DNA from: an uncultured Gammaproteobacteria bacterium | GTDB lineage: Bacteria > Patescibacteriota > Patescibacteriia > Magasanikbacterales > UBA922 | Length of the DNA stretch: 64,000 nucleotides | Assembly: GCA_964433095.1 (NCBI GenBank) | Contig: CAYSPW010000002.1 | Span: 9,498 to 73,497, forward strand | Reading direction: 5' to 3' | Part shown: in pieces, positions 4,918-24,210 of the stretch | Layout: the number at the start of each line of letters is the position of its first letter | How positions within the stretch are numbered: position 1 is the first letter of the stretch | The notes under the pieces: generated by a model | Told to the model about the DNA's origin: nothing | The model's database searches: none | Seen by the model: only the letters and a program-made list of their open reading frames with translations | Translations under genes and position numbers: made by a program

Positions 4918-5559
4918 ATGCCGAGCGTAAAAAAACTACTCATAATTTTCATACCGGCAATTATCATCGCCCTGGTGACTCTTAGTATAAGGGTGTTGCA
5001 ATATATTCCGACTGAAACAAAAGCGGTGGAACAAACCGATTCGGTTTATCAATCACTGATCCCAATTTTTGAAAACGACCCTATATTGGGTTCAAAAAAA
5101 GCCGGCCATACCGTAATAATCTTCGCCGATTTTGCCTGCGAAGCATGCGCGGCCCAAGATAAAATACTGGAAGATCTGATGAAAAAACATCGTGGACAAA
5201 TCAAGGTAATATGGAAAGGACTACCGGTGGCGCGTTTTCCTTTCAACTCACTGGAAGCGCATCGTTACGCCTATTGCGCCAATGAGCAAAACAAATTTGA
5301 ACAATTCGCCAAACTGACCTACACCAACTCAGACAATCTGTCAAGCGCCGCTATCGGCAGAATAGTCAATGAAATCGGCCTTGATCAAGAAAAAATGAAG
5401 CGCTGTTTGGAATCAAACCGGCCGGACGAACACATTGAATTAAACAAGCAGTTGGCCTCCTCTTTAAACATACAGGCCGTTCCGGCTATTTTTTACAATA
5501 ACAAACAACATAAAAGCCCACGGATTATTGAACAGTGGGAAGCTTTGTTAAATCTTTAA
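4918..5559 (+). CDS. DsbA/thioredoxin-like thiol-disulfide oxidoreductase, membrane anchored
   Basis: N-terminal TM helix; CxxC motif (FACEACAAQD) in thioredoxin-like context. Confidence 0.7.
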   Translation: MPSVKKLLIIFIPAIIIALVTLSIRVLQYIPTETKAVEQTDSVYQSLIPIFENDPILGSKKAGHTVIIFADFACEACAAQDKILEDLMKKHRGQIKVIWKGLPVARFPFNSLEAHRYAYCANEQNKFEQFAKLTYTNSDNLSSAAIGRIVNEIGLDQEKMKRCLESNRPDEHIELNKQLASSLNIQAVPAIFYNNKQHKSPRIIEQWEALLNL

Positions 5560-5561
5560 TT

Positions 5562-8306
5562 ATGGCCAAGTTTTTACAAATTTCTACCCTGGCGGTATTG
5601 ATTTCCACAGCAATATTTGATTTCATCCCGGCACGAGCCGCCACCGATTTTACTTACAAAACCGAGATCGCCTCCACCCCGCTCGGCGCGAACGTACAGC
5701 TGGTGGAATACGATACCGCCTGCCCTACCGGAAACGATTCCGGCTCCGATCCCAATCAAGGAATAATTATTACCAGAAACGCGGCCAGTCAAGTACGGGA
5801 AATATACTTTTACTTTCCCGGCAACAATGCGTCCGGAGTGGATCGGGAACCGGAAGATGTATGTTATTCAAATAACACCAAACTCTGCGACATTGTGAAC
5901 AACAATCAAAACTTGGCCATAGTGGCTTTTAACAAAAGCGTATCACCGCGCAACACCCGACAATGGCTGCAAGAACCGGAACACATGCGCTGTTTCATTA
6001 ACGAAGCCAAGAATAAATTAAGAGAACTGGGCGTGTCTTCCAATCGTTTGAATCTGGCCGGACACAGCGGGGGGGGACTGCAGGTCCTGCGCGCAACCAA
6101 AAATTCAGGCTTGAGCTTCAGCCGCGGCATCTTTTTTGACGCTTGCTACGGAACACAATGTTCGGACGCGGCCGCCACCGGCAGAACCGGCGACCTTTTT
6201 ATCTATTATCGGGCCGATTCCGATACCGAACAGGATTCGGTAAATACCAAAGACGGCTTTGCCGACAAAGTCAAGCTGGTCCAAACAACGGCCGCGCACG
6301 GATCCATTCCGCAATCATGCTTTTTGGATCATCTTGATAACAGTCTATGCGACGGCACCGGCACTGAGATCGGCACTCCGTTTGCGGGCGAAGCGCCACC
6401 GACCACCGAAGTTTCACCCGCCCCGGCCGGTTCCACACCGAGCGACGCGGCCGGCACAACTGACAGCTACTATTCCCAATCAGACATACAGGAATTGATT
6501 AGCGCACCACAGCCGATAATTAACATTCCCGGTCTGCAATTTTCCGATGCCGACCTGAGCCGTCTTTTCACTACCGACTACGATGAATTCGGCCGTGAAA
6601 ACACCTATTACTACTTCCCTTTCCTGGGTGAATATCTGGCCGCCGCCTACCGCTATGCCGTCGGTGCCGCCGCCATTCTGGCCATCGTGATAATTATCAT
6701 ATCCGGACTGCAATGGGCAGCTTCGGCCGGCAATCAAGAAACCATCGGCTCGGCCAAAAAGAGAATTTTTGGAGCTTTAATCGGCTTGTTTTTGGCTGTC
6801 GGTTCCTACACCATATTGTATACCATCAATCCCGAACTGACGGAATTTGCCAGTCTGAAGGTTTTAACCATAAAAGGCGAAGCGATTAATCTGGAAGGTC
6901 CTTCCGGAGACGCGGAAGAAGAAGCGGCGCGCCGCCTGCGGCGTGAAGACACTCCTCTCGGCACCACTGTTAGCGGTTCGCGACTTTTTCAACCTCCGAA
7001 CCAAGACAGCTTTTGCTTTCCGGTAGCCAAAGACGGATATGTAAAAAATACCAATAACTGGGGTCAATCCAGAGTTAAAAAAACCGGGGAAAGGGTGCGC
7101 TGCCACGCCGGAGTGGATCTGTTAACGGACGGAACCAATAACAGAGGTACGGTTTTATCAATGACCGACGGCGAAGTGATGCTGATCAGCCGCCGTTTTA
7201 CCGAATGTAAAGACGGACGTACCGAAAAAACCGGTCCCGGAACTTATGAGTGGGTGGGAGCGATATATGTCTATGACAGAAGAAACAATTTCACATATAT
7301 CTATGGCGAAATTAACAATGATACCATCAAGGTAAAAAAAGGAGATATGGTAAAAAAAGGACAAACACTCGGAATAGCATCCAAATGCACCATGCTGCAC
7401 CTGGAAGTATACGCGGGCAAAGGCAGAAAAACCGGCACTTCGATGTACGTAAGCGCCTTTGGCAAGAAAAAATCCGGCTGGTATTTGTTTGACGAACTCA
7501 AGGAACCACTTAACCTGCCCGACCAATTAAATCAAGGAAGAAACATCTGCGCTCAAGATCCGTATTTGCAAATATTGAACAAAACCGGCTCTACTCTTCT
7601 TGATCCGCGACAGTTTTTAAACAACATCAAAGACAATTTTTGCGAACCGGATAAATACTACGCTCCGCCGGCCGATACCGACGTGGAGCTCGCGATCCAG
7701 CAATTCTCTGCCTGCCACGGAATCGACTGGCGCGTTTTCAGGGAAACGGCCATGGCTGAAAGCTCGCTCCGTCCGCATGCCAAACTGGGACGATATTACG
7801 GTCTTTTTCAAGAAAGCGAGACTTATTGCAAAGAAGGATTGCGTTACGGTGATTACTCCATTGTTGGATTAAGCGTCGATAACTGCGAGAACGGATCAGC
7901 GGACGATCTAAGTGGACGCTTTGATATTCGCACCAATGTGGCCGCAGCCGCCGGATATATAAATTTTTTACTGCAGAGAATAGACAGAAAGTGCCCCGGC
8001 ATCAGCGCTTACGACGGCTTGACTTTGATGTATATCGGCCATAATAACGGCATTGGAGTAATGACCAGAATAATTACAAATATGAATGACGACAATGTAG
8101 CCTGCAACATGTCCAATATTTATCGTTACACTCGCGACTATTACATTGAACGCGGCGGCTCTGCTCATGGAGTTACTTTGCAGGAAGCTATGCGCAAATA
8201 TAATCATGGAAAAACATATATCACCGATGTACTTTTCGGCGCCAATAAAAGCGCTCCGCTTGATGTGATATTTGTGGGTAAAAATCCGCAATTGTGTCCG
8301 GATTAA
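5562..8306 (+). CDS. multidomain secreted/membrane cell-wall hydrolase: esterase-like N domain (GHSGGG), two TM helices, M23 (LytM) peptidase, SLT lytic transglycosylase
   Basis: signal peptide after internal Met (MAKFLQISTLAVLISTA); G-H-S-G-G nucleophile-elbow motif; hydrophobic helices (AILAIVIIIISGL, LIGLFLAVGSYTILY); M23 motifs (RCHAGVDL ... CTMLHLEVY); SLT-like catalytic region (AMAESSLRPHAK...YYGLFQ). Confidence 0.7.
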   Translation: MAKFLQISTLAVLISTAIFDFIPARAATDFTYKTEIASTPLGANVQLVEYDTACPTGNDSGSDPNQGIIITRNAASQVREIYFYFPGNNASGVDREPEDVCYSNNTKLCDIVNNNQNLAIVAFNKSVSPRNTRQWLQEPEHMRCFINEAKNKLRELGVSSNRLNLAGHSGGGLQVLRATKNSGLSFSRGIFFDACYGTQCSDAAATGRTGDLFIYYRADSDTEQDSVNTKDGFADKVKLVQTTAAHGSIPQSCFLDHLDNSLCDGTGTEIGTPFAGEAPPTTEVSPAPAGSTPSDAAGTTDSYYSQSDIQELISAPQPIINIPGLQFSDADLSRLFTTDYDEFGRENTYYYFPFLGEYLAAAYRYAVGAAAILAIVIIIISGLQWAASAGNQETIGSAKKRIFGALIGLFLAVGSYTILYTINPELTEFASLKVLTIKGEAINLEGPSGDAEEEAARRLRREDTPLGTTVSGSRLFQPPNQDSFCFPVAKDGYVKNTNNWGQSRVKKTGERVRCHAGVDLLTDGTNNRGTVLSMTDGEVMLISRRFTECKDGRTEKTGPGTYEWVGAIYVYDRRNNFTYIYGEINNDTIKVKKGDMVKKGQTLGIASKCTMLHLEVYAGKGRKTGTSMYVSAFGKKKSGWYLFDELKEPLNLPDQLNQGRNICAQDPYLQILNKTGSTLLDPRQFLNNIKDNFCEPDKYYAPPADTDVELAIQQFSACHGIDWRVFRETAMAESSLRPHAKLGRYYGLFQESETYCKEGLRYGDYSIVGLSVDNCENGSADDLSGRFDIRTNVAAAAGYINFLLQRIDRKCPGISAYDGLTLMYIGHNNGIGVMTRIITNMNDDNVACNMSNIYRYTRDYYIERGGSAHGVTLQEAMRKYNHGKTYITDVLFGANKSAPLDVIFVGKNPQLCPD

Positions 8307-10784: not shown

Positions 10785-12881
10785 TTACTCCAAATGCATG
10801 GTTTTTTCCCACTCCTCCACTTTTTTATTCAAACCCGGATATTTTGTAAAATCTATATCTCTAGCCGTATTCCTGGCCAATTTTATCAGCTCGCTATCCT
10901 TCATGGAAGCCAGCCGAAAATTCATCATGCCGCTTTGCGCCAGGCCGTACACGTCGCCCGGTCCTCTAAGCTGCAGGTCATACTCGGCCAACTTGAAACC
11001 ATTGGTTGTGCCGACAAAATATTTCAGCCTTTGTTCGGCTTTGTCAGAATCAGAATCTGAAAACAGGAAACAATATGACTGATGCGAACTCCTCCCCACC
11101 CTGCCTCTGAATTGATGCAATTGTGCCAGACCGAACCGTTCCGAGCCCTCAATAATCATGACCGAGGCATTGGGAACATCCACCCCCACTTCTATCACCG
11201 AGGTGGAAACAAGCACATCAATTTCGCCTTGAACAAACTTATTCATGCTCTGTTCTTTTTCTTTGGCCTCCATTTTGCCGTGCAGGTATCCGATCCGCAA
11301 ATCAGGAAAAATTTCTTTTTTCAACTTATCGTATTCGTTCATAACCGATTTTTTCTCGTCGCCAAAATGCAGGCTACGCGCGTCAGCTTGACCTTGGTTT
11401 TCCTCAATCAGCGGACAAACCACAAAAACTTGCCTGCCTTGCTTGACTTGCTCTTTGATAAAATCATAGGCTTTGTGTCGCAAATTCGGTTCCACCAATC
11501 TGGTAATGATGGCCTTTCTGCCTTTAGGCAACTGAGATATTATGGATATATCCAAATCTCCGTACAAAGTAAGGGCGAAAGAACGCGGTATGGGAGTGGC
11601 GGTCATGGATAAAAAATGCGGCATGGTTTCTTTGTTCCCCGACTGGTGCTTGATTTTTTTACGCTGCTCAACACCGAAGCGATGCTGCTCATCCACAATG
11701 ACCAATCCCAAATCTTTAAATTTTACTTCATCCACCAACAAAGCGTGCGTGCCCACCAACAGATCCACTTTCCCTTGCTTTATCATTTCCAATTTTTTTC
11801 TTCTATCCGCCGCTTTGGTTTTTTGCTTTTCATTCATATTATTAATCAAAGCATACTCTCTGGTCAGCAAACCCACGGATAAATTTTTTCCCAACAAGGA
11901 ACATAGTGAATCGTAATGTTGCTTGGCCAAAATTTCTGTCGGCGCCATCATGGCCGTTTGCAGACCGTTTAGCGCGGTGCTATAGATAGCCATGGCCGCC
12001 ACTACCGTTTTGCCCGAACCCACATCCCCTTCCAGCATCCGATTCATCGGACAGGTCTGTTGCAAATCCCGCAATATTTCCCATGCCGCCACTTTCTGCG
12101 CGTCAGTCAAAGTAAAAGGCAGGCCGTCCACGAATACTCTGATCGGCCGCTTTTTAAACTTAATGGAGGTGGCCTTGTCCTTTTTAATACTCTGTCGCAT
12201 CATTTCCGCCCTCAACTGCAAGATAAAAAGCTCGTCAAACTTTAACCTGAATTCCGCCTTTTCCAGCCGCCCGGCGTCTTCCGGAAAATGAATTGATCTC
12301 AGTGCTTCATGCAACGATAACAAACCTAATTTTTGCAATATTTCTCCAGGCAGCCAATCTTCAATTTTTTCTACATAATCAATCACCTGCGAAATCAAAA
12401 AACGCAACTGTTTTTGCGTGATGCCGCTAGTGAGCGAATAAATGGGTACGATTCTCGCCGTATGCACGCTTTCGTTTTTGGCTTTTTCATAAGAGGGTGA
12501 AATCATCCGCATACCAAACATGGAATCGGTAACTTTGCCGGATAAATACACGCTGTCGCCGGCACGCAGATTCTTGATTAAAAAAGGCTGCCCGAACCAG
12601 ACCGCTTGAACGCGCTCGCTTTCATCGGCCACAACCGCTTCGGTAATTATTCTTCTGGTGCGCGGACTGCGCTTGTTGTCAATCAGCTCAACTTTTCCTT
12701 TGATAGTTACTTGGTCGCCGTTTTTTAAATCCGCTATTTTAATGGTACGCGAATAATCTTCGTAGCGAAAAGGAAAATAGTATATGAGGTCATTGACATT
12801 CAATATACCCAATCGCTTAAGTCGGGACTGTAAGGCTTTGCCGATTCGATTTAATTTTATTACCGAAGTATTTAAATTCAT
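10785..12881 (-). CDS. recG: ATP-dependent DNA helicase RecG
   Basis: N-terminal wedge/OB region, DEAD/DEAH helicase motifs (GDVGSGKTVVAAMA, DEQHRFG), helicase C domain; length 698 aa. Confidence 0.9.
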   Translation of the reverse strand: MNLNTSVIKLNRIGKALQSRLKRLGILNVNDLIYYFPFRYEDYSRTIKIADLKNGDQVTIKGKVELIDNKRSPRTRRIITEAVVADESERVQAVWFGQPFLIKNLRAGDSVYLSGKVTDSMFGMRMISPSYEKAKNESVHTARIVPIYSLTSGITQKQLRFLISQVIDYVEKIEDWLPGEILQKLGLLSLHEALRSIHFPEDAGRLEKAEFRLKFDELFILQLRAEMMRQSIKKDKATSIKFKKRPIRVFVDGLPFTLTDAQKVAAWEILRDLQQTCPMNRMLEGDVGSGKTVVAAMAIYSTALNGLQTAMMAPTEILAKQHYDSLCSLLGKNLSVGLLTREYALINNMNEKQKTKAADRRKKLEMIKQGKVDLLVGTHALLVDEVKFKDLGLVIVDEQHRFGVEQRKKIKHQSGNKETMPHFLSMTATPIPRSFALTLYGDLDISIISQLPKGRKAIITRLVEPNLRHKAYDFIKEQVKQGRQVFVVCPLIEENQGQADARSLHFGDEKKSVMNEYDKLKKEIFPDLRIGYLHGKMEAKEKEQSMNKFVQGEIDVLVSTSVIEVGVDVPNASVMIIEGSERFGLAQLHQFRGRVGRSSHQSYCFLFSDSDSDKAEQRLKYFVGTTNGFKLAEYDLQLRGPGDVYGLAQSGMMNFRLASMKDSELIKLARNTARDIDFTKYPGLNKKVEEWEKTMHLE

Positions 12882-12921: not shown

Positions 12922-12943
12922 AAGCCTTTTTAGGCTTTTATTC
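12922..12943. terminator. palindromic hairpin (AAGCCTTTTTAGGCTT) with flanking T/A runs, possible bidirectional terminator at island/host junction
   Basis: 6-bp stem, 5-nt loop followed by TTATT on + strand and T-rich on - strand. Confidence 0.3.
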
Positions 12944-12952
12944 CGAAACCAC

Positions 12953-12965
12953 GCGTGGTGCACCC
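12953..12965 (+). repeat. 13-bp direct repeat GCGTGGTGCACCC (putative attL core), identical to tRNA-Arg 3' end copy at 25791..25803
   Basis: exact 13/13 match (15/16 with one mismatch) seen at both edges of the GC-rich block. Confidence 0.6.
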
Positions 12966-13470
12966 AAGTTCGGTTTTTCAGAACTCAGGCAGTTGTATCT
13001 CGAGGCCAAACGTGCCGTGACCGAGCTCCAGAAGACCTCGGTGTATGAGCAGCTTGTCACTCCAGAGATGGCGGCACAACTTCATTGATGGCGGTCACTC
13101 CTTTCCCTCCCTGAAACCTCTCCATTCGCTAGAATATTATTAGTAATCGTTAATCTTATCACATATGTCAGTCCGTCTTCAGGTTCAGTCGATGTAGCTT
13201 CCACCGTTTGACACCCGCCTTGATCTCTTTGACTGGCCAACCTGTCAGGCTCTCGATCTCTCCAATCTTGAAACCTACTACTGTATACATATACCAAAGA
13301 TTGTGCCTGGTGAAATCAAGAGACACCGAAGTGGAGGTTTCTTCGAATAGTTTCATATGTTTACAGAATGCCAGACTGAGGAGAATTTGTCAATAATAGG
13401 CAAAGTTTACAACCCTTTACCCCCAAATACGACATTGATGTCGGAGTTGCCTGTGGTGGCAAAGCTGACT

Positions 13471-15186
13471 CTAGCTCGCGATGTGGGCTTCATGGTTGAG
13501 CTTCTCGAAGAACTGTCTGGGGGTATCATAGGAATCTAGAAAGCGGGGTCCCTTATTGTATGCTATGTTCCAGCACCAATATGCCGCACATGCCTGAAAC
13601 CAAGTCGGATTCTCATCCTCCAAATCAAACACTTCAAATACAGAACGGATTCTCTGGTCTGCATCAGGGTGAGTTCTCGATTCTATGTCTTCATCAAGTA
13701 GTAGAAGAGCAGAAACTGACGTGATTCCGCCTGTAATGACAGTAGAACGCTTCGATGATACAAGACTGGCTTCCTGCAAGACCTCGGCAGCATATTCATC
13801 AGCAGCAGTTTCGTCCTGTTTACTATCCTTCATCGCAGAAGGTTCAGTTGACGTATGACCAAGGGCGACATGACCAATCTCATGTGCAAGGGCAAAGATG
13901 GTGGCATACAACAGGATTCCGTTTACCTTCTCGATGTACTCATCTTGATCTGGGTCATACAACTCTGGATTTGGTAGGTTCTTGTCCCACTCTGAAAACA
14001 CTTTCTTGAGACTCATTGCATAGTGGAAGAGTTTCTCCGCCCTTTGCAGGTACTCTGGTCTTGGGGTCATGCCTTGAGCAGTTTTATTCATGCCTTCATC
14101 AGCAACCACAATGAGACAGTAGCACATACACCAAAGGTAGGACAGAAAGGTCTCGGAAATGGATATCTTCGTACCACGGACGTGAGGGAGCATGTTCTCC
14201 GCAAGGAGTGGGCTGTTTGAGATATGATAGTCAATTCCATTGTCGAGACCGTGGTTGGTAATGACCTCCAACCATTTCTCCAAGGCTCCATCATGGCAGT
14301 TTTCAAGCTCATGAATGATGTTGTGCTGTAGTACCCTCACGGGCTGTTCGCCTTTATGGACTTCTGCAAGATAGCGGTTGACTTTCATTTGATTCTCTAC
14401 CTCTTCACTGGGCTTCATTCCACCGTTGGTAAGCAGACCGCCTTTCTTCCAAGAAGAAATGTCATATTCTTCGCCTGCTAGGTAGTTCTCTTGCTCTTTG
14501 TCTAGTGTTAGATCTGCCGGTCCAACATAAGCTAACATATTAGTTGGTGGACCATGTAACCTCTTGAACTGAAATCCCTCTCTCACCTGAGACAGGATAT
14601 TGATCCGTTGCTCTGGTCTCGTTTCGTTGCAGTAACGAAGAACACTGTCCCACGTAAATATCTTAAGATCTTCATTTTCTAGTGTGACAAGTCGATCACG
14701 CAGTGCTCTATCATATTCGATGGCTTTGTCACGGCCAATCACTAACACGTATCTGAACTTGACTCCATTACTTCCCAGTGGCTTTCTGATTGGTTCGATG
14801 CGCCGAAGTACCTCGCTGGTATTTCGTTTGATAAACTCACGATAGGTGTTGATTTGCGACAGGGCCTCTGTTAGGTCGGCTGATTGAACCAATATGCCAC
14901 TACTACGCTTGCTTCGAAACAAGAGCTTCGAAGGTGTCTTGATTTCAACAATCACGAAATGCCACTTTGTTGAGCTCTTTGTCAAATATGCAAAGTCAGG
15001 TTTATCCGCGGTATCCAAACTGAACTGAGAGATGAGACAACGAAAGTGCAGATGGTGATTTAGAAGGAATGCTAGCGGCAGAGATTCTGGTTCCTCTTCG
15101 AATAGTCGCTCTCTCTTAGACTTGTATCGGCCAACATGCTTTCTAACTTTTGTCTTGGTGAAGTAGTCATCGAATCGATACTCCAT
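13471..15186 (-). CDS. fusion protein: N-terminal PD-(D/E)xK nuclease (Shedu/DUF4263-like motif PD...IVEIK) plus C-terminal HExxH zinc metallopeptidase (ImmA/IrrE-like HEIGHVALGH)
   Basis: motifs ADKPDFAYL...WHFVIVEIKTP and LAHEIGHVALGHTS read directly from translation. Confidence 0.55.
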   Translation of the reverse strand: MEYRFDDYFTKTKVRKHVGRYKSKRERLFEEEPESLPLAFLLNHHLHFRCLISQFSLDTADKPDFAYLTKSSTKWHFVIVEIKTPSKLLFRSKRSSGILVQSADLTEALSQINTYREFIKRNTSEVLRRIEPIRKPLGSNGVKFRYVLVIGRDKAIEYDRALRDRLVTLENEDLKIFTWDSVLRYCNETRPEQRINILSQVREGFQFKRLHGPPTNMLAYVGPADLTLDKEQENYLAGEEYDISSWKKGGLLTNGGMKPSEEVENQMKVNRYLAEVHKGEQPVRVLQHNIIHELENCHDGALEKWLEVITNHGLDNGIDYHISNSPLLAENMLPHVRGTKISISETFLSYLWCMCYCLIVVADEGMNKTAQGMTPRPEYLQRAEKLFHYAMSLKKVFSEWDKNLPNPELYDPDQDEYIEKVNGILLYATIFALAHEIGHVALGHTSTEPSAMKDSKQDETAADEYAAEVLQEASLVSSKRSTVITGGITSVSALLLLDEDIESRTHPDADQRIRSVFEVFDLEDENPTWFQACAAYWCWNIAYNKGPRFLDSYDTPRQFFEKLNHEAHIAS

Positions 15187-15207
15187 TCGCTGATGCCTCT
15201 AACATTT

Positions 15208-18200
15208 TCACAACCAATCACAGTACACCTTGAAATACTCCCCATCCGATTCCCAGGTGCAGGGATCATCCCCACCTTCATCGAACTCTCCGTCACAGTC
15301 ATTGTCCCAGCCACCCAACTCATAGTCGTGCATGGCAGGATTGTTCTGCTCTGACCCATCCGCCCACATCCAGAAGGTCGAGTTTGCCGGGCATGTGTTG
15401 GTTGTGTAGATGAAGAACACACCTCCGGCTTCCTCGCAGATCACTCGGGGATCGTTGTCGATGTTGTCGAAGGGGTTGTCGTCACAATCTCCTCCCAGTG
15501 TCTCGGTGCAGTGGGGATTCTCCGAAGGCTCACATGGCGCGACCTCACAGTAGCAGTCCCAATCGTTATCAATCTGGTCAGCTGTGAAATCTGAGTGACC
15601 GGCATTCTCTCCCGATTCATTGCTATCTATTGCACCATGTAGATCCTGTTGACACACCCCATTCCAACCCGCTTCGTGCTCAGGACAGAAAAGACAGGAG
15701 CTTTGGTTTGAAGTTCGTGCTCCACTGGCGTAGTATTCAACTCCATCGAAAGAAACTGCGAAAGAGGAAGTCTCTTTGCATTTGTCTGGGCCCAAGTCCG
15801 TCCAGTAGAAATCTCCTGTACGAGAGTCGCTAGCCGAGCCGATGTCCAGATAGTGGTCGGCGATGGTCACATCATCGTTACACCGGCGGAAAGCAAACCG
15901 AAAGGGGACGTAGGAGCGACAGTTGATGCAACCCTGGTAAGGAGCATCACCAGACCATATCTCTGGTAGGTCGTACTCCAGCCAGCCATCGCTATCTGTA
16001 TCAGATATCGCTATCTCAACGTGATTGAAGGTGTCATCAGCCCATCTACTCCAGCCAATCACACAGGGGGTGACGTTTTCAAACGGTGTTCCATCTTGGA
16101 GATCAAACTCTGTTGGCAGGATGAGGATTCTACCATTGTCATTCGGATCAAACCGAATCGCGCAGGCATTGTCCTCACACGGTCCGAGAGGTTCACAGAC
16201 CCCTGCAACACATTGCTCATTGAAGCCACAGGCAGGACAGGTCACCTCATCACCACATCCATTGTCCCAGGTACCACAGTCATGGCCGAGATCAGCGCAT
16301 GACTGAAGAGTACAACACTCGCCTTCGTAGCAGATATCTACCCCAGTACAATCACCACACTCCAGCGACATTCCGCAACCGTTGTCCGGTGTCCCGCATT
16401 CGCTCACCAGACACTCCCTGGGTACACAAACACAGAATCCATTCTGACATTCCTCTTGAGCGAGCTCGTCGCAGATTCCACATTCGAGGGTTTCTCCACA
16501 GCCGTCGGGCCACGGTCCACAGGAATTCGAACCTATCGCTTCGCAAGTCGTCGGTGTGCAACCTGCACAAGTATTACCTGAACAGCCATAGGTGCAGGTG
16601 ATCGCGTTTCCCCAGTCCAGACAGTCGTCTGGATCAAAATCGCCACATGTTTCCTCAATACCATCCACACAGCGGGTCTCGTCAATCATATCGCATTCGT
16701 CGGAGCAGGTGGTCACACATGTTCCTGTCAGGTCACAGGTCTCACCAATGCCGCATCCTCCGCACTCGAGAGTGTCACCACAGCCATTCGGCCAGTCTCC
16801 GCACTCCACCTGGAGACTGATGCAGGTGTCCGGAGCGCAGCATGAGTTTTCGTAGCAGACGCCATCCGGGCAAGAAGTTGGACTGCTCCATTCTAAACAT
16901 TCATCCTGGTCGTGGTTGCCACAGGTTTGGATCAGCTCTCCCGTACACTGAGTCCTTCCTTGGGGAAGGCAGTCATCGGTGCAAGTGTCTTGGCATTCGC
17001 CTCCACGACAAATTCGGTTCAGGCCACACTCAAGTCCATCAGTCTCAACAGGACAGTTCTGTTCTTCTGTTACACCTTGGCTGTAATCGCAAGATCCGTC
17101 TACACAGGACACTGTTGGTACATACCTAGATTGTGTGCCGTTCTCATCGCAGACATTCTCGATTGAAAGACACTCAGACCACTCACCGGGGATTGGCTCG
17201 GGACAGTCTGAAGCCTCGGTACACTCCGGCATATCACCACAATGAGAGCTGTCTTCGAAGTCTGCTATCGTGAGACTTGATTGTTGTTGTCCAAGCCACC
17301 TTCGGTCAACGCTGGATGGAATAGAAACGAAGTCTGTGACGATGTAACCAGCCCGAGCAAGTTCTGCCTGGCTCATGTTGAGCTGTCTGATCTCGTGGTT
17401 GAACAAAGTCACATAGTAGTTGCCTTGGTGTTTAAGGAGAAAGCCGGGGTGATAGGCAGCCTCTTCGACCAGCGATCTCTTCAGATCCCAGACTTCACCT
17501 CCTCCAAGCTCGGCATCTCTTCCCCAGCTAAGTGCCAGTTGTTCAAAGGTGCTTTCGTTGACCTTACCGACTTCGCGATCGTAGCTGAGTCCATCATAGT
17601 AAGCGTAGAGCGTTCCATTTCGCACAAACGCCTGAAAACTGACTGTTTCTGTAGCCAGATTGTATTCCTCACAGAGAGGATAACAACGAAGCTCCTCCTC
17701 TGAGACAAAGATATTGAGACCCAAATCGAACGCGTCTGGATCCTCAAGATTGTCTGGATTGGCAATGTAACGAAGGCAACCGTCTTCAAGAAGGTAGAGA
17801 CAGTTGACTTCACTATCTCCACCTTCGTGAACACAAAGGCCACTCTGGGTTTGAATGAGACTGCCATCAGGGTGCCAGAAGATACCTCTTTCTTCACAAC
17901 GACCGTTAACACAAGTCGACTCAGCACAGTCTACCAACAACGACCCTCTCTCCTCACATGAATTGTACCAGTATACATCACCCTCATAACATCGGAAGTC
18001 TGCTCTAGGAGTACATGGAGTAGGACATTCTGGATCCTCAGTATCTACCAAACCATCGCAGTCGTCATCCAGACCATTATCACAGAACATCTCCTCATCA
18101 AGACAATCGCCTCCAGTCTCCTCTCCGACACGGAACTGAGTGACGTAGTCTGGGATGTCATACTGTCGATTATCCTCAGTATGTACGAACATATCTATTT

Positions 18201-19659
18201 CATAAGGAGCTTCCGGTAGCCCATCCAATTCTATGATATGAAAAGCAAAGTCCCACATGTCGTAGCCTTCTGTGATTTGTGAAGGAAAAATCCACTCGGT
18301 ATCCCCAGATATCTCAACATCACCTATTGCAAGATTGTACACGATATAGTGAATGCGGTGGTTTCTCTGAGGTGCATCCACTCTAGCCGATATGAACACA
18401 GTATCTCCAACGCCAAAACCGTTACCTTCACCATACTCACTACCATTACAACGATAGAACCAGTCGGCATTGGGTGTCGGCCTTTCGGTGCAAATTGTCG
18501 GGTTTGGATAGTAAATTGATGGGCTATTTACTACATAACCCGGATCGTATGGGCCTCTCTGAACACGATATGAAAAAACCACTTCTGGATCATCTGAATA
18601 TTCGGTGAATCCACCACCTGTGTCGACAAATACCCTGAAGATCCATCTCGTCCACTTTCTCTCGGGAGTCCCGATCCTCTTGAGATCATCATGAACCCGT
18701 ACATTCTCAAAGGTGACATGAAGGATTGATTCACCTGATGGTTCGCGCCATTCCGTGTTCCAGCTCCAATCCAGGCAGTATTCTTCGTGACTATTTTCTG
18801 CAGCACAATCCTCTGTTCCCTCACGATAAGCCTCTACTCGATAACGATGTGCGACATCAATGTCGAAAACAGCAAGGCTATGTACCGTGTCGCCTGAGAA
18901 TATTTCATACGAGGGGTTTTCCTGTGCAACTAAAACATTTTCGTTGTCTAAATGAGATATCCCCCCAGCACTTCTACCCATTTCTAGACCGCACGTGTCA
19001 TCATTTAGAAGGTAAGTGCAAGAGATTGGGTTGAGGTTAGAAGGGACAAATCGAACATTGTTTCTTTCCGTAAAACCGTCATGCCAACCTCGGTGCAGTT
19101 CGGTCATCTTCGTATTTCCTATTTTTACATCCTTCAGCATCTGGTTCGTTTCTAATCCACTGTCAAGGTGTGCTAACTGTTGGTGAAGATGCGATCCATC
19201 TGAGTAACCACTGTTTCCAAGTATACCGACCATCTCGCCCTTTGATACATAGCCCTTTTCCAAAACTCCCTGTGGAATCGACCCCTCCTTCAGATGTGCT
19301 AGTTTGACCGAATAGCCCGCGCCAAAGTCAATCTCAATATAGCAGCCAAAAGACAGTACATCTGTCCCGAATGTGTTGGGGCAAAGCGCATTACGTGATT
19401 TCAACACCTTACCTGATACCGGAGAGACAATCTGTACTTCAGTTTGATTACCCCCCTGACGAATTTGATCATCCCAATCAAGAGAATAGAATCCGTTTCC
19501 TATATGAGTGTCAGATTCGCCACAGCCAACGGTAAGGTACCATTGTAAGCCTGATGGCATCGCCGAATCGTAGCTTGCGCCTAGATATTGAGCACTTGCA
19601 GCTTTGGCAAGAAGGAACAAAGTCACTACACAGCATGTTAATTCCGCTACCTGTCTCAT
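15208..19659 (-). CDS. giant (1483 aa) secreted cysteine-rich protein with N-terminal M23 peptidase domain and tandem Cys-rich modules
   Basis: signal peptide (LLAKAASAQ); M23 motifs (GNGFYSLDWD...GSHLHQQ); more than 100 Cys; repeated C-G-x-W-x-x-G-C-G-x-x-L-x-C-G-x-C units; acidic CxDxxDxD calcium-binding-like segments. Confidence 0.7.
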   Translation of the reverse strand: MRQVAELTCCVVTLFLLAKAASAQYLGASYDSAMPSGLQWYLTVGCGESDTHIGNGFYSLDWDDQIRQGGNQTEVQIVSPVSGKVLKSRNALCPNTFGTDVLSFGCYIEIDFGAGYSVKLAHLKEGSIPQGVLEKGYVSKGEMVGILGNSGYSDGSHLHQQLAHLDSGLETNQMLKDVKIGNTKMTELHRGWHDGFTERNNVRFVPSNLNPISCTYLLNDDTCGLEMGRSAGGISHLDNENVLVAQENPSYEIFSGDTVHSLAVFDIDVAHRYRVEAYREGTEDCAAENSHEEYCLDWSWNTEWREPSGESILHVTFENVRVHDDLKRIGTPERKWTRWIFRVFVDTGGGFTEYSDDPEVVFSYRVQRGPYDPGYVVNSPSIYYPNPTICTERPTPNADWFYRCNGSEYGEGNGFGVGDTVFISARVDAPQRNHRIHYIVYNLAIGDVEISGDTEWIFPSQITEGYDMWDFAFHIIELDGLPEAPYEIDMFVHTEDNRQYDIPDYVTQFRVGEETGGDCLDEEMFCDNGLDDDCDGLVDTEDPECPTPCTPRADFRCYEGDVYWYNSCEERGSLLVDCAESTCVNGRCEERGIFWHPDGSLIQTQSGLCVHEGGDSEVNCLYLLEDGCLRYIANPDNLEDPDAFDLGLNIFVSEEELRCYPLCEEYNLATETVSFQAFVRNGTLYAYYDGLSYDREVGKVNESTFEQLALSWGRDAELGGGEVWDLKRSLVEEAAYHPGFLLKHQGNYYVTLFNHEIRQLNMSQAELARAGYIVTDFVSIPSSVDRRWLGQQQSSLTIADFEDSSHCGDMPECTEASDCPEPIPGEWSECLSIENVCDENGTQSRYVPTVSCVDGSCDYSQGVTEEQNCPVETDGLECGLNRICRGGECQDTCTDDCLPQGRTQCTGELIQTCGNHDQDECLEWSSPTSCPDGVCYENSCCAPDTCISLQVECGDWPNGCGDTLECGGCGIGETCDLTGTCVTTCSDECDMIDETRCVDGIEETCGDFDPDDCLDWGNAITCTYGCSGNTCAGCTPTTCEAIGSNSCGPWPDGCGETLECGICDELAQEECQNGFCVCVPRECLVSECGTPDNGCGMSLECGDCTGVDICYEGECCTLQSCADLGHDCGTWDNGCGDEVTCPACGFNEQCVAGVCEPLGPCEDNACAIRFDPNDNGRILILPTEFDLQDGTPFENVTPCVIGWSRWADDTFNHVEIAISDTDSDGWLEYDLPEIWSGDAPYQGCINCRSYVPFRFAFRRCNDDVTIADHYLDIGSASDSRTGDFYWTDLGPDKCKETSSFAVSFDGVEYYASGARTSNQSSCLFCPEHEAGWNGVCQQDLHGAIDSNESGENAGHSDFTADQIDNDWDCYCEVAPCEPSENPHCTETLGGDCDDNPFDNIDNDPRVICEEAGGVFFIYTTNTCPANSTFWMWADGSEQNNPAMHDYELGGWDNDCDGEFDEGGDDPCTWESDGEYFKVYCDWL
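16225..16830 (-). repeat. four tandem ~40-codon Cys-rich repeat units inside the giant gene (CG[DPT]W[PD][ND]GCG[DE]xLxC)
   Basis: repeated nucleotide strings such as ccattcggccagtctccgcactc / cagccgtcgggccacggtccacagg / catccattgtcccaggtacc on + strand. Confidence 0.5.
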
Positions 19660-19712
19660 CTCGCTTGCTCCTTCTTAACGTCTATGTACATGCCACCACC
19701 TGATATCTTCAC

Positions 19713-20447
19713 TCAGTATTCCACACTAGACACGATCTGCTTGAAAACTTGATAGAGTTCGTTGCTCTCTATCTGTCCCAGCAGTTCTTGATTGCATCCA
19801 TGGATATCCTGGTATGTGTATTTGCCGGTGATATCGTCTGATTTGAGTAGTGTGCCAACATTAGAAAGATAGACTACGAATAATACGTTCGGGTATTCCT
19901 TTGTTTGGTTCTGAACCAGTCCCTTCAAGTACACATTCGAAAGCGAAGGTTTCCTTAAGTAATCCTCACTTTCTCCGTAGTCAAAGAAAACCTGATATAT
20001 GAAGGCGTTATTGGATACTACTTCAGGATCACAGTGGAGATCTTCGTTCTCGGATTCGAGTTGTTCCCCCAATGAACCATTGAGTTCAAATTCTCGTGCT
20101 CCAAAAGATGGCGAATATTCACTCGAGCCAATTGATACATCCCACGTTTCAGCCCGAATGTAGATAGATTTTCCTGTTTCCTGGTGACGGAGAGTGATTC
20201 TGATCACCCTACCTGAATCACCATCATTGGACGATTGAACAAGATTTGTACTTTCTGTGTCTTCGATTTCCCAACTATTAGGATAATGAAAGCGGATATC
20301 AAGTTCTTCATTATAATAAACATTTAGGTTGTCTGGATTCCTTTCATCTTTCAATGCTGGAGACTCGCACGCAACACAAAATAGCATCACTGTAAGGGTG
20401 AATAGGGCAACGAGTATTACGCTGTAAATTTGCGGTTGTTTCATGTT
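19713..20447 (-). CDS. hypothetical secreted/lipoprotein-like protein (start at MKQPQIYSV, signal peptide ending ...LFCVAC)
   Basis: N-terminal hydrophobic signal with Cys after it; no family recognised. Confidence 0.45.
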   Translation of the reverse strand, partial: NMKQPQIYSVILVALFTLTVMLFCVACESPALKDERNPDNLNVYYNEELDIRFHYPNSWEIEDTESTNLVQSSNDGDSGRVIRITLRHQETGKSIYIRAETWDVSIGSSEYSPSFGAREFELNGSLGEQLESENEDLHCDPEVVSNNAFIYQVFFDYGESEDYLRKPSLSNVYLKGLVQNQTKEYPNVLFVVYLSNVGTLLKSDDITGKYTYQDIHGCNQELLGQIESNELYQVFKQIVSSVEY

Positions 20448-20502
20448 GTATCCTTTGATGTCATTTAGACATGACGCGATCGCTGTGTCAGTTCGCTTGT
20501 CT

Positions 20503-23034
20503 TCATAACGTGCTTGCATGTCGCCAGCCAGCCTCCTCAAGACGATCTCCGAAGCTCTTCTTTGTCATCTCTGCCAAGGCCTCGATCGTTCTCCTGATTC
20601 GACGCTGCGCCGGCAGATGCCGGCCACGCTTGAGGTTCTTCCTCGAGAAGAGTTGACGCTGCTTCTTGACGAACTTCCGTACACGGTGGCCAACATAGTC
20701 GTCTTTCTCGATCTTACTGAGCAGGACGGGAACCTTTCCCGCATGTGGCTCTCGGAGGATTCTAAGAGCCAAGGTGAAGCCCTTCACATAGACAGGTGAA
20801 AGGTCTCTGTGCTTCCCTAGTATCCTGTAGATGGACCGTGTCCAAGGTTTGATGTACTCAGGATAGACGTTCCGCAGCAACTGATCAAGGTTCGATCCGT
20901 CTCTGAGTGGACCCTGTGTAAGAGCTTGAAGACTCTTTGTCAGCAGCCCGGGTAGCACTTCATCAGAGCACTTGGTGAGGTACCGGTCGAGCTCCTGTGC
21001 TTCCTCTATCTTCAGGTGTTTTCTGAAGAGCTCCTCCAGCTCAGGTCTACTCGGATACTGTTTCATGTGGTAGAGAACGAGGCGCTTCCGGTAGGCTGGC
21101 AGCTCGAGCTCCTCGAGGAGCTCATGCACTTTCCTCTCAACATCGAACCAAGCATCTTCGATCAGTTTGTCCGTTGTTCCATCGTCCCATTCTTGCAGGT
21201 GCTCGAAGTAGTGACGATGCAGCTCATTGCGGTAGTGGCGGATGCAGGTTGACATCGGCAGGAGAAGCTGTTTGGGCCGAGCCACTTCCTTTTCCTGGTG
21301 CTCGCCTTTGTCTGCTTCCCTCAGCAACTCTATCGTCTCTCGAACGAGGGCAAGAGATTGAGTATCCGTTGGATTCTCGATGAGAGTCCGGATGACTGTC
21401 TCCATCCGGCCATTTCTCAGGGCGGGAGGTAGATAGCCTTCTGTCTTTTCGATATCATCTTCAAGAGGTAGGTCATTCGGGTTGAGGACGGGGCTTTGCT
21501 CCTCAACCTCTTCTTCCTCAATGAGCTCAGGCTCGAATGAGACGAAGAGATCATCTTCAGAGTCTCTGTCCCACACCGGTTTCTCTTGTTGATTAATTTC
21601 CTTTACTTTATCACATTCTCTCAAAATTTCAAGTTCTTGACCTATCCTCTCATGTTCAAGCCACTCATGGTCCATGAGCAGTCTGTTTCTCTCACTACTC
21701 CAAGCCTTTTCAGCCAGTCTCACTTGATACGAGATGACCTTTGAGACAAGCTGCTCGAAACGCTCCTTTTCTTGGTGCTCTAAGAGTAAAGTGAGTGCTT
21801 GCTCAAGGAGATCGGCACTCAGTCGATCATTGTGCTTCAATCTGCGAAGCAGGTCATCACTTGGGAAGACCTCTGTCTGCTCCAAGCCCCAGTCCTCGAG
21901 GTAGGTCGGGATGTCAGAGAATCTGATTGTGCCACCATCGTAGGCAATCCGTATAAGATAGTAGAAGAAGTTGTCGCTCACATTGACGCGCATGCGTTCC
22001 AACCAGTTGTCACGAATTAGTTTTCCGCCCCCTATTTTATCACAACAGGGTGGACAATGTGGCAACAACACCTTCGCCAAGAGTGGATCCGCGATTGATT
22101 CGTACTTGTCAGATAAACTGGACTCCTCATCCCTAATGAGCATGCGTACCAACCTCATGCCAAAGCTCGGTGGATTCTTAGATAGGATCTGTCCAAGAAA
22201 CTCCTGAAAGTCCTTTCCTTGCTGAAGAAGCAGGTCAGTCAGCTCAAACTGGTCCGATTGACCGATGTATGCTTGGTAGGTTTCTTCGATCACGGGGTAG
22301 GACTTCTCATCATGCAGTAGCTCACACAAGCAAATGGTCTTGACGATCGGGTCCTGGATTTGCGAGATGGCCGGAACCAAGGACTCTCCGTTTTTGAGCG
22401 CGTGTGCCAGATAGGTCTTCCTGAGACGTTCAATGAACTCAGGGCGTTCTTTCAAGATACGCAGGAGGAGATCAAGCTCACCGCTGTACACTTCATTCCC
22501 TAGACGATCCCTGAGACTCTTGGGGAGCTGCTTGAAGTCGAAGGTGTAAGGATGTCTGACAAATAAATCCACCAGTTCGTCATCGCTCGGCTCGTGGGTC
22601 TTGAGGAGTTTTTGCAGGAGCTTGAACTCTTGTCGGTCTCCCTCCCAATCACTTGAATTGATGTTGTGAGTAAAGTACTGCCATGCGGCTGTCTTCGCTT
22701 TCGGGGTGTCGATGTAGAGATCTGAGAAGGACTCACTCACTCGTGCACATTCAGTAGCGCGACACAAGGAACGTATTGCACCAGAAAGTGATGAAGAGTT
22801 TATCGAGGAAGCGGCGTAACTCTTTAGGTCGAAGAGTATATAGACCTGCTCGTGCAGATAGGGATGGCAATAGGTCATTACTAGGTCTGAGGGATGGGTA
22901 CTGGTGCCGTGTCGACGCTGATAAACACATTCCCAGTTCTCGTCCGTAGGACCCACTTGGATCCAGAGGAAGGCATCAAAGATATCCGACGCAACTTTGT
23001 TTGCCATTTCAGCAATGTTTGCAGTCTCAGGCAT
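20503..23034 (-). CDS. large hypothetical protein (843 aa), N-terminal PD-(D/E)xK-like motif (HPSD...EQVYILFDLK), remainder alpha-helical
   Basis: motif read from translation; no other family recognised by eye. Confidence 0.5.
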   Translation of the reverse strand: MPETANIAEMANKVASDIFDAFLWIQVGPTDENWECVYQRRHGTSTHPSDLVMTYCHPYLHEQVYILFDLKSYAASSINSSSLSGAIRSLCRATECARVSESFSDLYIDTPKAKTAAWQYFTHNINSSDWEGDRQEFKLLQKLLKTHEPSDDELVDLFVRHPYTFDFKQLPKSLRDRLGNEVYSGELDLLLRILKERPEFIERLRKTYLAHALKNGESLVPAISQIQDPIVKTICLCELLHDEKSYPVIEETYQAYIGQSDQFELTDLLLQQGKDFQEFLGQILSKNPPSFGMRLVRMLIRDEESSLSDKYESIADPLLAKVLLPHCPPCCDKIGGGKLIRDNWLERMRVNVSDNFFYYLIRIAYDGGTIRFSDIPTYLEDWGLEQTEVFPSDDLLRRLKHNDRLSADLLEQALTLLLEHQEKERFEQLVSKVISYQVRLAEKAWSSERNRLLMDHEWLEHERIGQELEILRECDKVKEINQQEKPVWDRDSEDDLFVSFEPELIEEEEVEEQSPVLNPNDLPLEDDIEKTEGYLPPALRNGRMETVIRTLIENPTDTQSLALVRETIELLREADKGEHQEKEVARPKQLLLPMSTCIRHYRNELHRHYFEHLQEWDDGTTDKLIEDAWFDVERKVHELLEELELPAYRKRLVLYHMKQYPSRPELEELFRKHLKIEEAQELDRYLTKCSDEVLPGLLTKSLQALTQGPLRDGSNLDQLLRNVYPEYIKPWTRSIYRILGKHRDLSPVYVKGFTLALRILREPHAGKVPVLLSKIEKDDYVGHRVRKFVKKQRQLFSRKNLKRGRHLPAQRRIRRTIEALAEMTKKSFGDRLEEAGWRHASTL

Positions 23035-23083
23035 TCGAGCCTCCTCTTGAGAGATTCTAGCAAATGCTGCCAGCCAATAAATG

Positions 23084-23902
23084 CTATTTTCGTGGCATCT
23101 TCAGTTTCTTGAGCTTTGCCCTTTTCTTCTTCTTACCCCATATGTTCTTAGTTTTTCTTTGTTGAGTCGAAAATTCATATACTATCTCCTCATAGGTCAG
23201 GCCTGGATGTATTACAGGAATTGCCGATCGCGCAAACTTCTGTTTCAAAGAGAGCTCACCAGATTTGGGTAAGATGACGCACGCGAGATCATACATTCTA
23301 AACTTCAAATCACCACGAACGCGCCATTCTCGCTCCCAAGTGAAATCGTATCTCTCATGCATGGCGTTGATAAAAGGAAGAAGTCTCCATATTTTACCCT
23401 TATGGAAGCCACCTTTTTTTGCAACGTTGAACAGACTATCGACAGCTTCACGCAACCACGTATTATCATTGTAGCTGTTGATGTAAATGGCCGGCTGAGC
23501 GCCCTTTGAAATAATGAACTCGCGACTGAACACGAACCCATACTCCTCGAACTGGTTATTTCGACCTGGAATACGTTGAGTGAGTAGATGAATTTGTGTG
23601 AGTGGAATCTCCGAAAAGCAACAAACACTGAACCTCTCTTGATACCTATCTGGTATGTCCTTCGCAAACAAGCAGTGAGGTAGATAGGCTGAGATTTGGC
23701 GTTCCTCAAGAATTGCGCGAAAGTTCTCTTTTGCTGACCCACCCGACTCACCAAACGTATTTGTATCGTTCCGTGTTAGGTGAACCACGAATTTCGAGAT
23801 GTCTTCGCGTCCGCTGACAGCAAATCCTCTTGAACCCATGACAAGACCAGAAGTAGATTTTGTGATAGCGCAGCAGTTAAGAGTACTTGAACATACGGCC
23901 AA
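23084..23902 (-). CDS. hypothetical protein, DarT/AbiGi-like abortive-infection family candidate (H ... Y-G-F-V-F ... E-R-E-W-R order)
   Basis: FVVHLTR, VCCFSEIPL, YGFVFSREF, WEREWRVRG segments; resemblance judged from memory only. Confidence 0.4.
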   Translation of the reverse strand: MAVCSSTLNCCAITKSTSGLVMGSRGFAVSGREDISKFVVHLTRNDTNTFGESGGSAKENFRAILEERQISAYLPHCLFAKDIPDRYQERFSVCCFSEIPLTQIHLLTQRIPGRNNQFEEYGFVFSREFIISKGAQPAIYINSYNDNTWLREAVDSLFNVAKKGGFHKGKIWRLLPFINAMHERYDFTWEREWRVRGDLKFRMYDLACVILPKSGELSLKQKFARSAIPVIHPGLTYEEIVYEFSTQQRKTKNIWGKKKKRAKLKKLKMPRK

Positions 23903-23971
23903 GAGTCAACAGTACCACTGATTGCATGAAGTTCCCCTCCACAAGATTCCTACTTCTGCTACGATGATGGA

Positions 23972-24172
23972 ATGAAAAACACAGTACCTGACAATCTACC
24001 TGTCATCCACGATGACCAAAAGGCTCTTCCCCAGGTCCCTCCAGAATTCTCAGAGAAACAAAGCAAGGCGCTCATCACCTTCCTCCTCACATTGAGAAAG
24101 ATTGCGGAAGATCTTATGGCTGAGGGATACACCTACGAAAACGGAGAGGTCATACCACCGAAACAGGATTGA
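23972..24172 (+). CDS. small hypothetical protein upstream of recombinase (possible directionality factor, unproven)
   Basis: 66-aa ORF co-oriented 38 bp upstream of serine recombinase. Confidence 0.3.
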   Translation: MKNTVPDNLPVIHDDQKALPQVPPEFSEKQSKALITFLLTLRKIAEDLMAEGYTYENGEVIPPKQD

Positions 24173-24210
24173 TGTGGTGGAGTAGTATCCACTGGATAAC
24201 CTAACATCAT

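Follow-up and report, generated by a model that had tools for sequence, protein, structure and literature searches.

Shedu nucleases share a common tetramerising DUF4263 core, to which, according to the available text of Gu et al. (10.1101/2023.08.10.552793), domains of 79 N-terminal families are attached, including CHAT proteases. In the same text, the nuclease of B. cereus Shedu is described as toxic when its N-terminal regulatory domains are removed, the sensor-less Type 2 Shedu proteins 'may be constitutively active', and ~163 Shedu proteins carry unclassified C-terminal extensions of more than 100 amino acids (aa). The available text of that study makes no mention of Lit or U49. Lit of E. 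coli is a latent zinc protease which recognises a peptide of the T4 major capsid protein (Gol) together with EF-Tu, cleaves EF-Tu and aborts infection (PMC13228613). Proteolysis is established as a means of activating defence effectors (Evans et al. 2025, 10.1101/2025.11.14.688446; PMC13228613); the available text of Evans et al. mentions neither Shedu nor Lit. Here, we analyzed a 64,000-nt stretch of contig CAYSPW010000002.1 (assembly GCA_964433095.1, positions 9,498 to 73,497 of the forward strand), hereafter the window, in which a gene at 13471-15186 is predicted to encode a Shedu PD-(D/E)xK nuclease and a Lit-type zinc protease, both halves complete, in one polypeptide. This SduA-Lit fusion is a real, one-off reshuffling of two known phage-defence parts: the domain architecture is new and the modules are known. 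To our knowledge, little work on the Lit family has gone beyond the protein of E. coli e14, and we know of no regulator of the sensor-less Shedu nucleases.

Domain content of the fusion protein

The fusion gene and the elements of its two halves are as follows.

13471-15186, minus strand: fusion open reading frame (ORF), 571 aa, with ATG at 15186-15184 and TAG stop at 13473-13471, from the ORF listing
15196-15200, minus strand: Shine-Dalgarno-like AGAGG, 9 nt upstream of the start of the fusion ORF
14389-15186, minus strand: N-terminal half (aa 1-266), a short type 2-like Shedu SduA with nuclease core and family-conserved C-terminal subdomain
14638-15072, minus strand: DUF4263/SduA_C PD-(D/E)xK nuclease core (aa 39-183)
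14938-14997, minus strand: nuclease catalytic motif D64...E81-I-K83, with K70 between, from alignment A4 and an alignment with B. cereus Shedu
14854-14856, minus strand: Q111 of the nuclease
13474-14388, minus strand: C-terminal half (aa 267-571), a complete Lit-family (Peptidase_U49) protein
13810-13884, minus strand: zinc site H435-E436-I-G-H439 (13884-13870) and E459 (13812-13810); D463, H506-P507 and R512 are also conserved

The fusion ORF starts 21 nt past the stop codon of the gene encoding a 1483-aa protein. The identical 571-aa sequence is present in NCBI-derived data as the singleton cluster P0001, with precomputed matches to PF14082 and PF10463. In searches of Pfam, PADLOC and NCBIfam, the protein matched two unrelated families, SduA/DUF4263 in the N-terminal half and Lit/Peptidase_U49 in the C-terminal half. 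A sequence-only reading of this DNA had placed the ORF at these coordinates and quoted the motifs ADKPDFAYL...WHFVIVEIKTP (aa 60-85) and HEIGHVALGH (aa 435-444), all of which agree exactly with the ORF listing. Its proposal that a single ORF joins a Shedu/DUF4263 PD-(D/E)xK nuclease to an HExxH zincin was borne out by hidden Markov model (HMM) and structural tests: each half had significant matches of both kinds, and neither motif fell in a disordered region.

The N-terminal half matched Pfam SduA_C (PF14082) with 69.5 bits against a cut-off of 27 (E 4.8e-19, aa 39-183) and PADLOC SduA (PDLC00378) with an E-value of 7e-61 over aa 28-267, corresponding to positions 32-271 of the 287 in the model. 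Residues D64, K70, E81 and Q111 were invariant across the 24 short-SduA sequences of alignment A4. The nuclease motif aligned to DF...VLI(E)IKTPS...TQV of B. cereus Shedu, and K83 is the canonical lysine, as in the VLIEIKTPS of that protein. Overall, 23 stand-alone SduA proteins, 258-325 aa long and 29-40% identical to this half, aligned with it from end to end. These relatives stop 4-30 residues past a conserved W..G..L..NGK motif that corresponds to query residue ~257. The N-terminal regulatory or sensor domain of Type 1 Shedu is absent from the fusion, in which the nuclease match begins at aa 28-39 according to Pfam and PADLOC. Because this domain is absent and the relatives are themselves sensor-less proteins of 258-325 aa, we classified the N-terminal half as Type 2-like.

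Within alignment A4, the positions equivalent to aa 81-83 are E-L-E in most members of the short-SduA subfamily and E-I-K in the query and B. cereus Shedu. K70, in the sequence YLTKSS, is invariant in the subfamily. Since most members have E-L-E while K70 is invariant, the catalytic lysine may have migrated in this subfamily.

The C-terminal half matched Pfam Peptidase_U49 (PF10463) with 40.1 bits against a cut-off of 23.9 (E 4e-10, aa 348-518) and PADLOC Lit with an E-value of 4.6e-23 (aa 336-526). The sole strong NCBIfam match was Lit (NF007238), with 123.8 bits and an E-value of 7.8e-36 over positions 55-277 of the 309-position model. The half has a zincin fold with an HExxH zinc site and, further downstream, an acidic ligand, and H435, E436, H439, E459 and D463 were invariant across the 25 Lit-clade sequences of alignment A3. 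In the alignment with 24 stand-alone Lit-clade proteins (~300-331 aa; 27-38% identity), it covers their full length, beginning at Met1; this clade occurs mainly in Bacteroidota. As judged from the NCBIfam score, which lies below the 274-bit equivalog cut-off, the C-terminal half is a distant member of the Lit family and not an orthologue of E. coli Lit. Free proteins of the clade carry a strongly conserved H-x-G-x-Q-P-V-R-V-L motif 10-20 residues from the N-terminus (query aa 277-286), in which Q and P are invariant and G, R, V and L are at least 90% conserved in A3.

The sequence-only reading had assigned this half to the ImmA/IrrE (Peptidase_M78) metallopeptidases, with the substrate logic of that family, in which a separate helix-turn-helix (HTH) repressor is acted upon. 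Neither the assignment nor the logic held, as Lit/Peptidase_U49 models scored far higher. The match to PF06114 reached 15.2 bits against a cut-off of 22 and was confined to aa 430-470, around HExxH; no M78 (IrrE/ImmA) structure was among the top 60 Foldseek matches. No HTH (Xre-type) repressor gene was found adjacent to the fusion gene, whose neighbours are the gene for the 1483-aa M23-peptidase protein and the spacer on the RecG side. No HTH family was found among the island proteins scanned with Pfam, a set that did not include the 62-aa ORF at 13168-13356.

Four other Lit-clade proteins, P0086, P0163 (L023, 5137-6951), P0051 and P0068, have unrelated N- or C-terminal extensions with no Pfam match outside U49. 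The extensions are N-terminal with 275-290 aa, N-terminal with 157 aa, or C-terminal with 285 aa; that of P0086 starts with YLDTNVI and is PIN-like by eye only. The clade may therefore be more modular than the single-gene paradigm of E. coli suggests. Since N-terminal extensions of 150-290 aa occur within the clade, the Lit domain tolerates N-terminal fusion.

We also modelled the fusion with AlphaFold2. From a 17-row alignment, the model had a mean predicted local distance difference test (pLDDT) of 79 and a predicted template-modelling score (pTM) of 0.56; single-sequence input gave a pLDDT of 34. Both domains were mostly modelled at pLDDT 70-95, with block values of ~85 around D64/E81 and 90-91 around HExxH. 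The sole long low-confidence stretch comprised aa 261-278, with pLDDT below 50 at residues 261-270 and 272-278, and the inter-domain geometry was not confidently predicted, as the pTM indicates. In Foldseek searches of the PDB, the N-terminal domain matched 8TI9, an octamer of the B. cereus Shedu nuclease, with a probability of 1.00 and a target-normalised TM-score of 0.59; its fold matches solved Shedu structures of both E. coli and B. cereus. The nearest solved folds of the peptidase domain were M48 gluzincins, and no solved relative of the Lit family was found by sequence.

The junction and the distribution of the architecture

Two features define the junction.

14353-14406, minus strand: junction and linker EEVENQMKVNRYLAEVHK (aa 261-278), delimited by pLDDT and by the end of stand-alone SduA and the start of stand-alone Lit proteins
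14386-14404, minus strand: internal AGAGG (14404-14400), 11-nt spacer including CAA-266 (14391-14389), and ATG of Met267 (14388-14386)

Free Lit homologues begin with MKxxxY..H.G.QPVRVL, and their start coincides with Met267 of the query. The AGAGG pentamer that precedes Met267 is the same as that at the main start, with spacers of 11 and 9 nt, respectively. A motif of this type precedes 3 of the 38 internal in-frame ATGs in the island genes. A single transition would turn codon 266 (CAA), directly before the ATG of Met267, into TAA. The reading frame runs uninterrupted across the junction, which contains no frameshift, N or low-complexity sequence. The internal AGAGG and ATG267 look like the retained translation start of a former Lit gene, and a free Lit product from this start is possible. 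Because CAA-266 is one transition from TAA and abuts a Lit ATG that keeps its AGAGG, the fusion most probably arose through loss of the stop codon between abutting, translationally coupled sduA and lit-type genes. Elsewhere, SduA genes (L001 and L002) and Lit genes (L009 and L024) each lie directly downstream of a type I hsdR gene, which provides a plausible route to SduA-Lit adjacency.

The architecture was found nowhere else in the collections searched. A word-indexed search of 5.8 billion cluster representatives returned no protein other than the query with both PF14082 and PF10463. In a HMMER scan of 1.84 billion representatives, non-query proteins matched one half only among the best 150 of 860 matches (at least 114 bits); a fusion of close relatives would top this list, and fusions of much more distant members could hide lower. 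We then scanned 118 loci, 38 of the Lit clade from species-representative genomes and 80 of short SduA from metagenomes, in six frames with HMMs built from our own alignments. SduA and Lit occurred together, fused or adjacent, in none of them. A candidate linkage at L057 and L058 was rejected: the neighbour of SduA is a generic 477-aa HExxH protein that scored 14 bits against Lit and 17.6 bits against M78. The gene contexts of P0008, P0003, P0014 and P0017 likewise contained no SduA-Lit pairing.

Plasmids, phages and viral contigs, 72,556 in total, were also searched. According to tblastn, 73 plasmids carry one half or the other, none with a match covering at least 80% of the query, and 50,697 phage records contained no match. 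IMG/VR yielded one short SduA and no Lit-clade member. In the literature searched, no paper linked DUF4263 to a metallopeptidase fusion. The remark in the sequence-only reading that this is not a described defence architecture thus stands across the proteins, loci, mobile elements and literature searched. It is the architecture that stands out, rather than the sequence cluster: the genome has no close sequenced relative.

The stand-alone relatives of each half are, from their gene neighbourhoods, typical defence-island passengers. Short-SduA relatives adjoin type I restriction-modification and TIR genes, and BREX, integrase, PemK and GmrSD genes. Lit-clade relatives adjoin genes for type I HsdR, a reverse transcriptase (in a metagenome-assembled genome (MAG) of Peregrinibacteria), a KAP NTPase, DUF4209 and an RNase_T-BRCT protein. 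Toxin-antitoxin genes are further neighbours of the two families. In the Lit clade, approximately one third of the genes show tight coupling to a neighbour, which varies and may lie on the upstream or the downstream side, across gaps of -25 to +50 bp. In the MAG of Candidatus Peregrinibacteria, a lineage of the candidate phyla radiation (CPR), the two genes lie within L011, 121-2625, where the Lit-clade gene is 34 bp downstream of the 501-aa reverse-transcriptase gene, possibly forming a reverse transcriptase-associated defence pair in another CPR lineage. Among the short-SduA loci, the metagenome contig pair ERZ1643246/ERZ1643247 (L058, 106-5703, and L057) contains a co-oriented row comprising a 239-aa gene and genes for a 321-aa HEPN_Apea-like protein, a Csx27-like membrane protein, short SduA and the 477-aa HExxH protein, which is assigned to no family. 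This row is a compact, uncharacterised defence island.

The integrated island and its host

The fusion gene is the last cargo of the co-oriented block of a sharply delimited 12.8-kb serine-integrase island (12953-25803), which is integrated in the tRNA-Arg(gcg) gene of a Magasanikbacteria genome. The features of the island and its borders are listed below.

12953-12965: island border repeat GCGTGGTGCACCC, candidate attachment (att) site on the RecG side
25791-25803: island border repeat GCGTGGTGCACCC, overlapping the 3' end of tRNA-Arg
25794-25868, minus strand: tRNA-Arg(gcg)
10785-12881: RecG
24211-25857, plus strand: large serine recombinase/integrase, 548 aa, with Pfam Resolvase and Recombinase matches and a match to phrog_95 integrase (E 5e-57)
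15208-19659, minus strand: Cys-rich M23-peptidase protein, 1483 aa, the largest island cargo
19713-20540, minus strand: 275-aa ORF, co-oriented with the fusion gene
20503-23034, minus strand: 843-aa protein, N-terminus matching PADLOC Hp1
23084-23902, minus strand: AbiGi-like ORF, 272 aa, co-oriented with the fusion gene
13168-13356, minus strand: 62-aa ORF between the fusion stop and the island border, of uncertain gene status
12922-12937, minus strand: terminator-like hairpin and T-run just outside the border, downstream of the fusion gene; consensus match only

The best matches of the RadA encoded in the window had 71-72% identity and are named Candidatus Magasanikbacteria; the host is therefore a bacterium of the Patescibacteria/CPR. 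In two related Magasanikbacteria genomes (L126 and L127), the gene order is ClpB, two unknown genes, a DsbA-like gene, SLT/M23, RadA, RecG (minus strand), at most one small gene and tRNA-Arg(gcg), followed by a 167-aa gene, LytR, Der and Pth. The island site is empty in both: RecG and tRNA-Arg are separated by 0.6-2 kb in these relatives versus ~12.9 kb in the window. The exact 13-bp direct repeat was identified when the tRNA region was compared with the island by short-word BLAST; it occurs in only two copies in the window, with ~0.0025 matches expected by chance. The placement of the gene in a mobile island, as the sequence-only reading had it, is thus confirmed by the break in synteny, the serine integrase, tRNA-Arg and the 13-bp att repeats. 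The integrase ORF itself crosses the right att repeat and ends at 25857, inside the opposite-strand tRNA-Arg; the final ~22 codons therefore consist of host/att sequence and would change on excision.

The island differs from the host in its translation signals and codon usage. Clear Shine-Dalgarno motifs precede three of the six island genes, namely the fusion ORF and the genes for the 1483-aa and 843-aa proteins (starts at 15186, 19659 and 23034). Nearly all host genes have A/T-rich leaders lacking such a motif; one (54670-56622) has a clear AGGAG-type motif. The L1 distance of codon usage from the host mean was 0.49-0.59 for island genes versus 0.22-0.35 for host genes of similar size, and the two halves of the fusion were alike in this respect (0.57 and 0.54). 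GC content alone does not clearly mark the island, unlike codon usage, Shine-Dalgarno motifs, synteny and the att repeats, and in the window the Shine-Dalgarno contrast marks foreign DNA better than GC content. Scans for sigma-70-type promoters and terminators around the fusion gene yielded counts not above the shuffled expectation. The 62-aa ORF had no match in PADLOC, PHROGs or NCBIfam.

The sequence-only reading had also placed the gene among other defence-like genes, which is true in part. A borderline AbiGi-like gene (Pfam 23.0 bits versus a cut-off of 22.4; PADLOC E 3e-6) and an Hp1-matching protein are present, but the largest cargo encodes the secreted 1483-aa M23-peptidase protein. 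The Hp1 match covers the first ~110 residues of the 843-aa protein (PADLOC E 5e-23; phrog_7059, E 2e-32), the remainder of which has no match. This protein and the AbiGi-like ORF may constitute a second defence module on the island. The 1483-aa protein, a singleton at 90% identity, combines an N-terminal M23 domain (aa 74-163) with repeated Cys-rich modules; a second giant protein, M23/type IV secretion system pilin-like, is encoded at 5535-8306 in the host part of the window. The fusion documents a defined, integrase-borne defence cargo with precise att sites in a Patescibacteria (CPR) genome, an unusual host phylum.

Possible functions and relation to described systems

We give roughly even chances to the gene being a real, lineage-specific fusion of two anti-phage modules, both catalytically intact as far as sequence can tell and each keeping its own activity. 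This reading is based on the Pfam, PADLOC and NCBIfam matches, the invariant catalytic residues, the wholeness of both halves, the fact that the relatives work alone, the tolerance of the Lit domain for N-terminal fusion and the features of the island. If it resembles E. coli Lit in its action, the Lit-type domain would be a latent protease that responds to a signal from a phage late protein by cutting a host translation factor. The Shedu domain would oligomerise and cut DNA, as characterized Shedu proteins do, and the fusion would ensure that the two modules are co-expressed and co-localised. We infer the anti-phage role, the substrates and the mechanistic independence of the two activities.

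Several points weigh against this reading. The architecture is a singleton and so comes without evolutionary evidence of selection keeping the fusion. Every checked protein of the contig is a singleton at 90% identity, which leaves no basis for dating the fusion. The assembly is of metagenome type, in which a single-base error at a stop codon is possible. The Lit half scored below the 274-bit equivalog cut-off for E. coli Lit (NF007238), and EF-Tu could be named as its substrate by analogy only. Finally, the H-x-G-x-QPVRVL motif, N-terminal in free Lit proteins, is internal in the fusion, just past the linker, and this position might impair or alter regulation.

The sequence-only reading had suggested that the protease gates or matures the nuclease. 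This went unsupported: relatives of both halves exist alone and were never found linked, and the junction looks like the result of stop-codon loss. In the form of this idea that we considered, which we judge unlikely, the Lit-type domain replaces the missing Shedu sensor and holds the nuclease inactive until a phage protein induces a conformational change or a cut in the linker that frees the active core. The reported toxicity of B. cereus Shedu lacking its regulatory domains and the possible constitutive activity of sensor-less type 2 proteins, both from the available text of Gu et al., are consistent with a need for restraint. However, the SduA genes most closely related to the N-terminal half (258-325 aa) are viable on their own, lack a protease partner and need no Lit restraint. 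The C-terminal extensions of more than 100 aa on ~163 Shedu proteins and the CHAT protease domains on others, in the same text, provide partial parallels, as does the precedent of proteolysis-gated effectors (Evans et al. 2025; PMC13228613), although Shedu and Lit are both unmentioned in the available text of Evans et al. The ~18-residue low-confidence linker of the model is presumably accessible, yet the low pTM leaves the geometry between the domains without a confident prediction. Similarly, about a third of the Lit-clade genes are tightly coupled to a variable partner and a few are fused to other N-terminal domains, but the neighbours are heterogeneous defence-island genes with no single recurrent effector, and SduA-Lit linkage, fused or adjacent, was found in no other genome searched. 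The kept start codon and Shine-Dalgarno motif suggest a recent accidental fusion and not an evolved switch.

A related proposal, which we regard as unlikely, is that the Lit-type domain is a phage-protein sensor controlling Shedu in cis, making the protein a capsid- or late-protein-triggered single-chain nuclease or a self-cleaving zymogen. It is hinted at because the Lit clade is often tightly coupled to variable partners and has other fusions. If true, the Lit family could serve as an upstream switch for other effectors and not only as a terminal, EF-Tu-cutting effector.

It is quite improbable that the locus is effectively two genes, either through a miscalled stop codon (an assembly or sequencing artefact) or as real DNA with separate products, Lit being translated from Met267. 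The architecture is a singleton on a metagenome-derived contig, Met267 is the start of every free Lit homologue, its AGAGG matches that of the main start (spacer of 11 versus 9 nt), and CAA-266 is one base from TAA. Yet the junction is read in one uninterrupted frame and contains no frameshift, N or low-complexity stretch, and consensus errors that hit exactly a stop codon are rare. The AGAGG is weak evidence, since 3 of 38 internal ATGs have such a motif anyway, and direct SduA-Lit adjacency would still be unique among the 118 loci. In the case of two genes, the locus would be an ordinary SduA-then-Lit pair in a defence island.

Very improbable is non-functional cargo, in which accidental read-through inactivated one or both modules that have not yet decayed on a recently acquired island: the architecture is an unconserved singleton, the motif conserved near the N-terminus of free Lit proteins lies buried behind the fused Shedu half, and expression is uncertain for an island foreign to a host whose genes mostly lack Shine-Dalgarno leaders, but the ORF is intact across 571 codons, neither half has lost a catalytic or invariant residue of its family, both domains are confidently folded in the AlphaFold2 model, and natural Lit-clade proteins with N-terminal extensions exist.

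Whichever reading applies, a natural covalent link between Shedu and Lit offers a way to ask whether a Lit-type protease regulates a nuclease or whether defence islands merely weld neighbours together. The fusion occurs once and bears no mark of having been selected for, which limits its general importance unless coupling is shown.

With respect to known systems, the fusion resembles the ImmA/IrrE peptidases with their Xre-type repressors in having an HExxH zincin with a weak local M78 match at aa 430-470. It differs from them in scoring below the M78 threshold and far higher against Lit models, and in that no adjacent HTH repressor was found. Its likeness to the proteolysis-gated modules in the available text of Evans et al. 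2025 is conceptual, a protease lying beside or fused to a potentially toxic effector; those modules involve other proteases and effectors (Pepco, EACC1 and others). Compared with E. coli e14 Lit, the C-terminal half passes the Pfam U49 cut-off, keeps HExxH and the downstream Glu, and is complete and Lit-sized. By contrast with e14 Lit, it lies below the equivalog cut-off, belongs to a mainly Bacteroidota clade and sits behind a nuclease. The N-terminal half is like Shedu Type 2 of Gu et al. in its DUF4263 core, D...ExK and Q motifs, lack of a sensor, length and C-terminal subdomain. Unlike in the Shedu proteins of their available text, where the regulatory domains are N-terminal, the fusion carries a 305-aa enzymatic domain at its C-terminus. 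Type 1D Shedu with CHAT, as presented in that text, likewise combines a Shedu nuclease and a protease domain in one polypeptide. There, the protease is N-terminal and a caspase-like cysteine enzyme, whereas that of the fusion is C-terminal, a zinc metalloprotease by family, and itself a known stand-alone defence protein.

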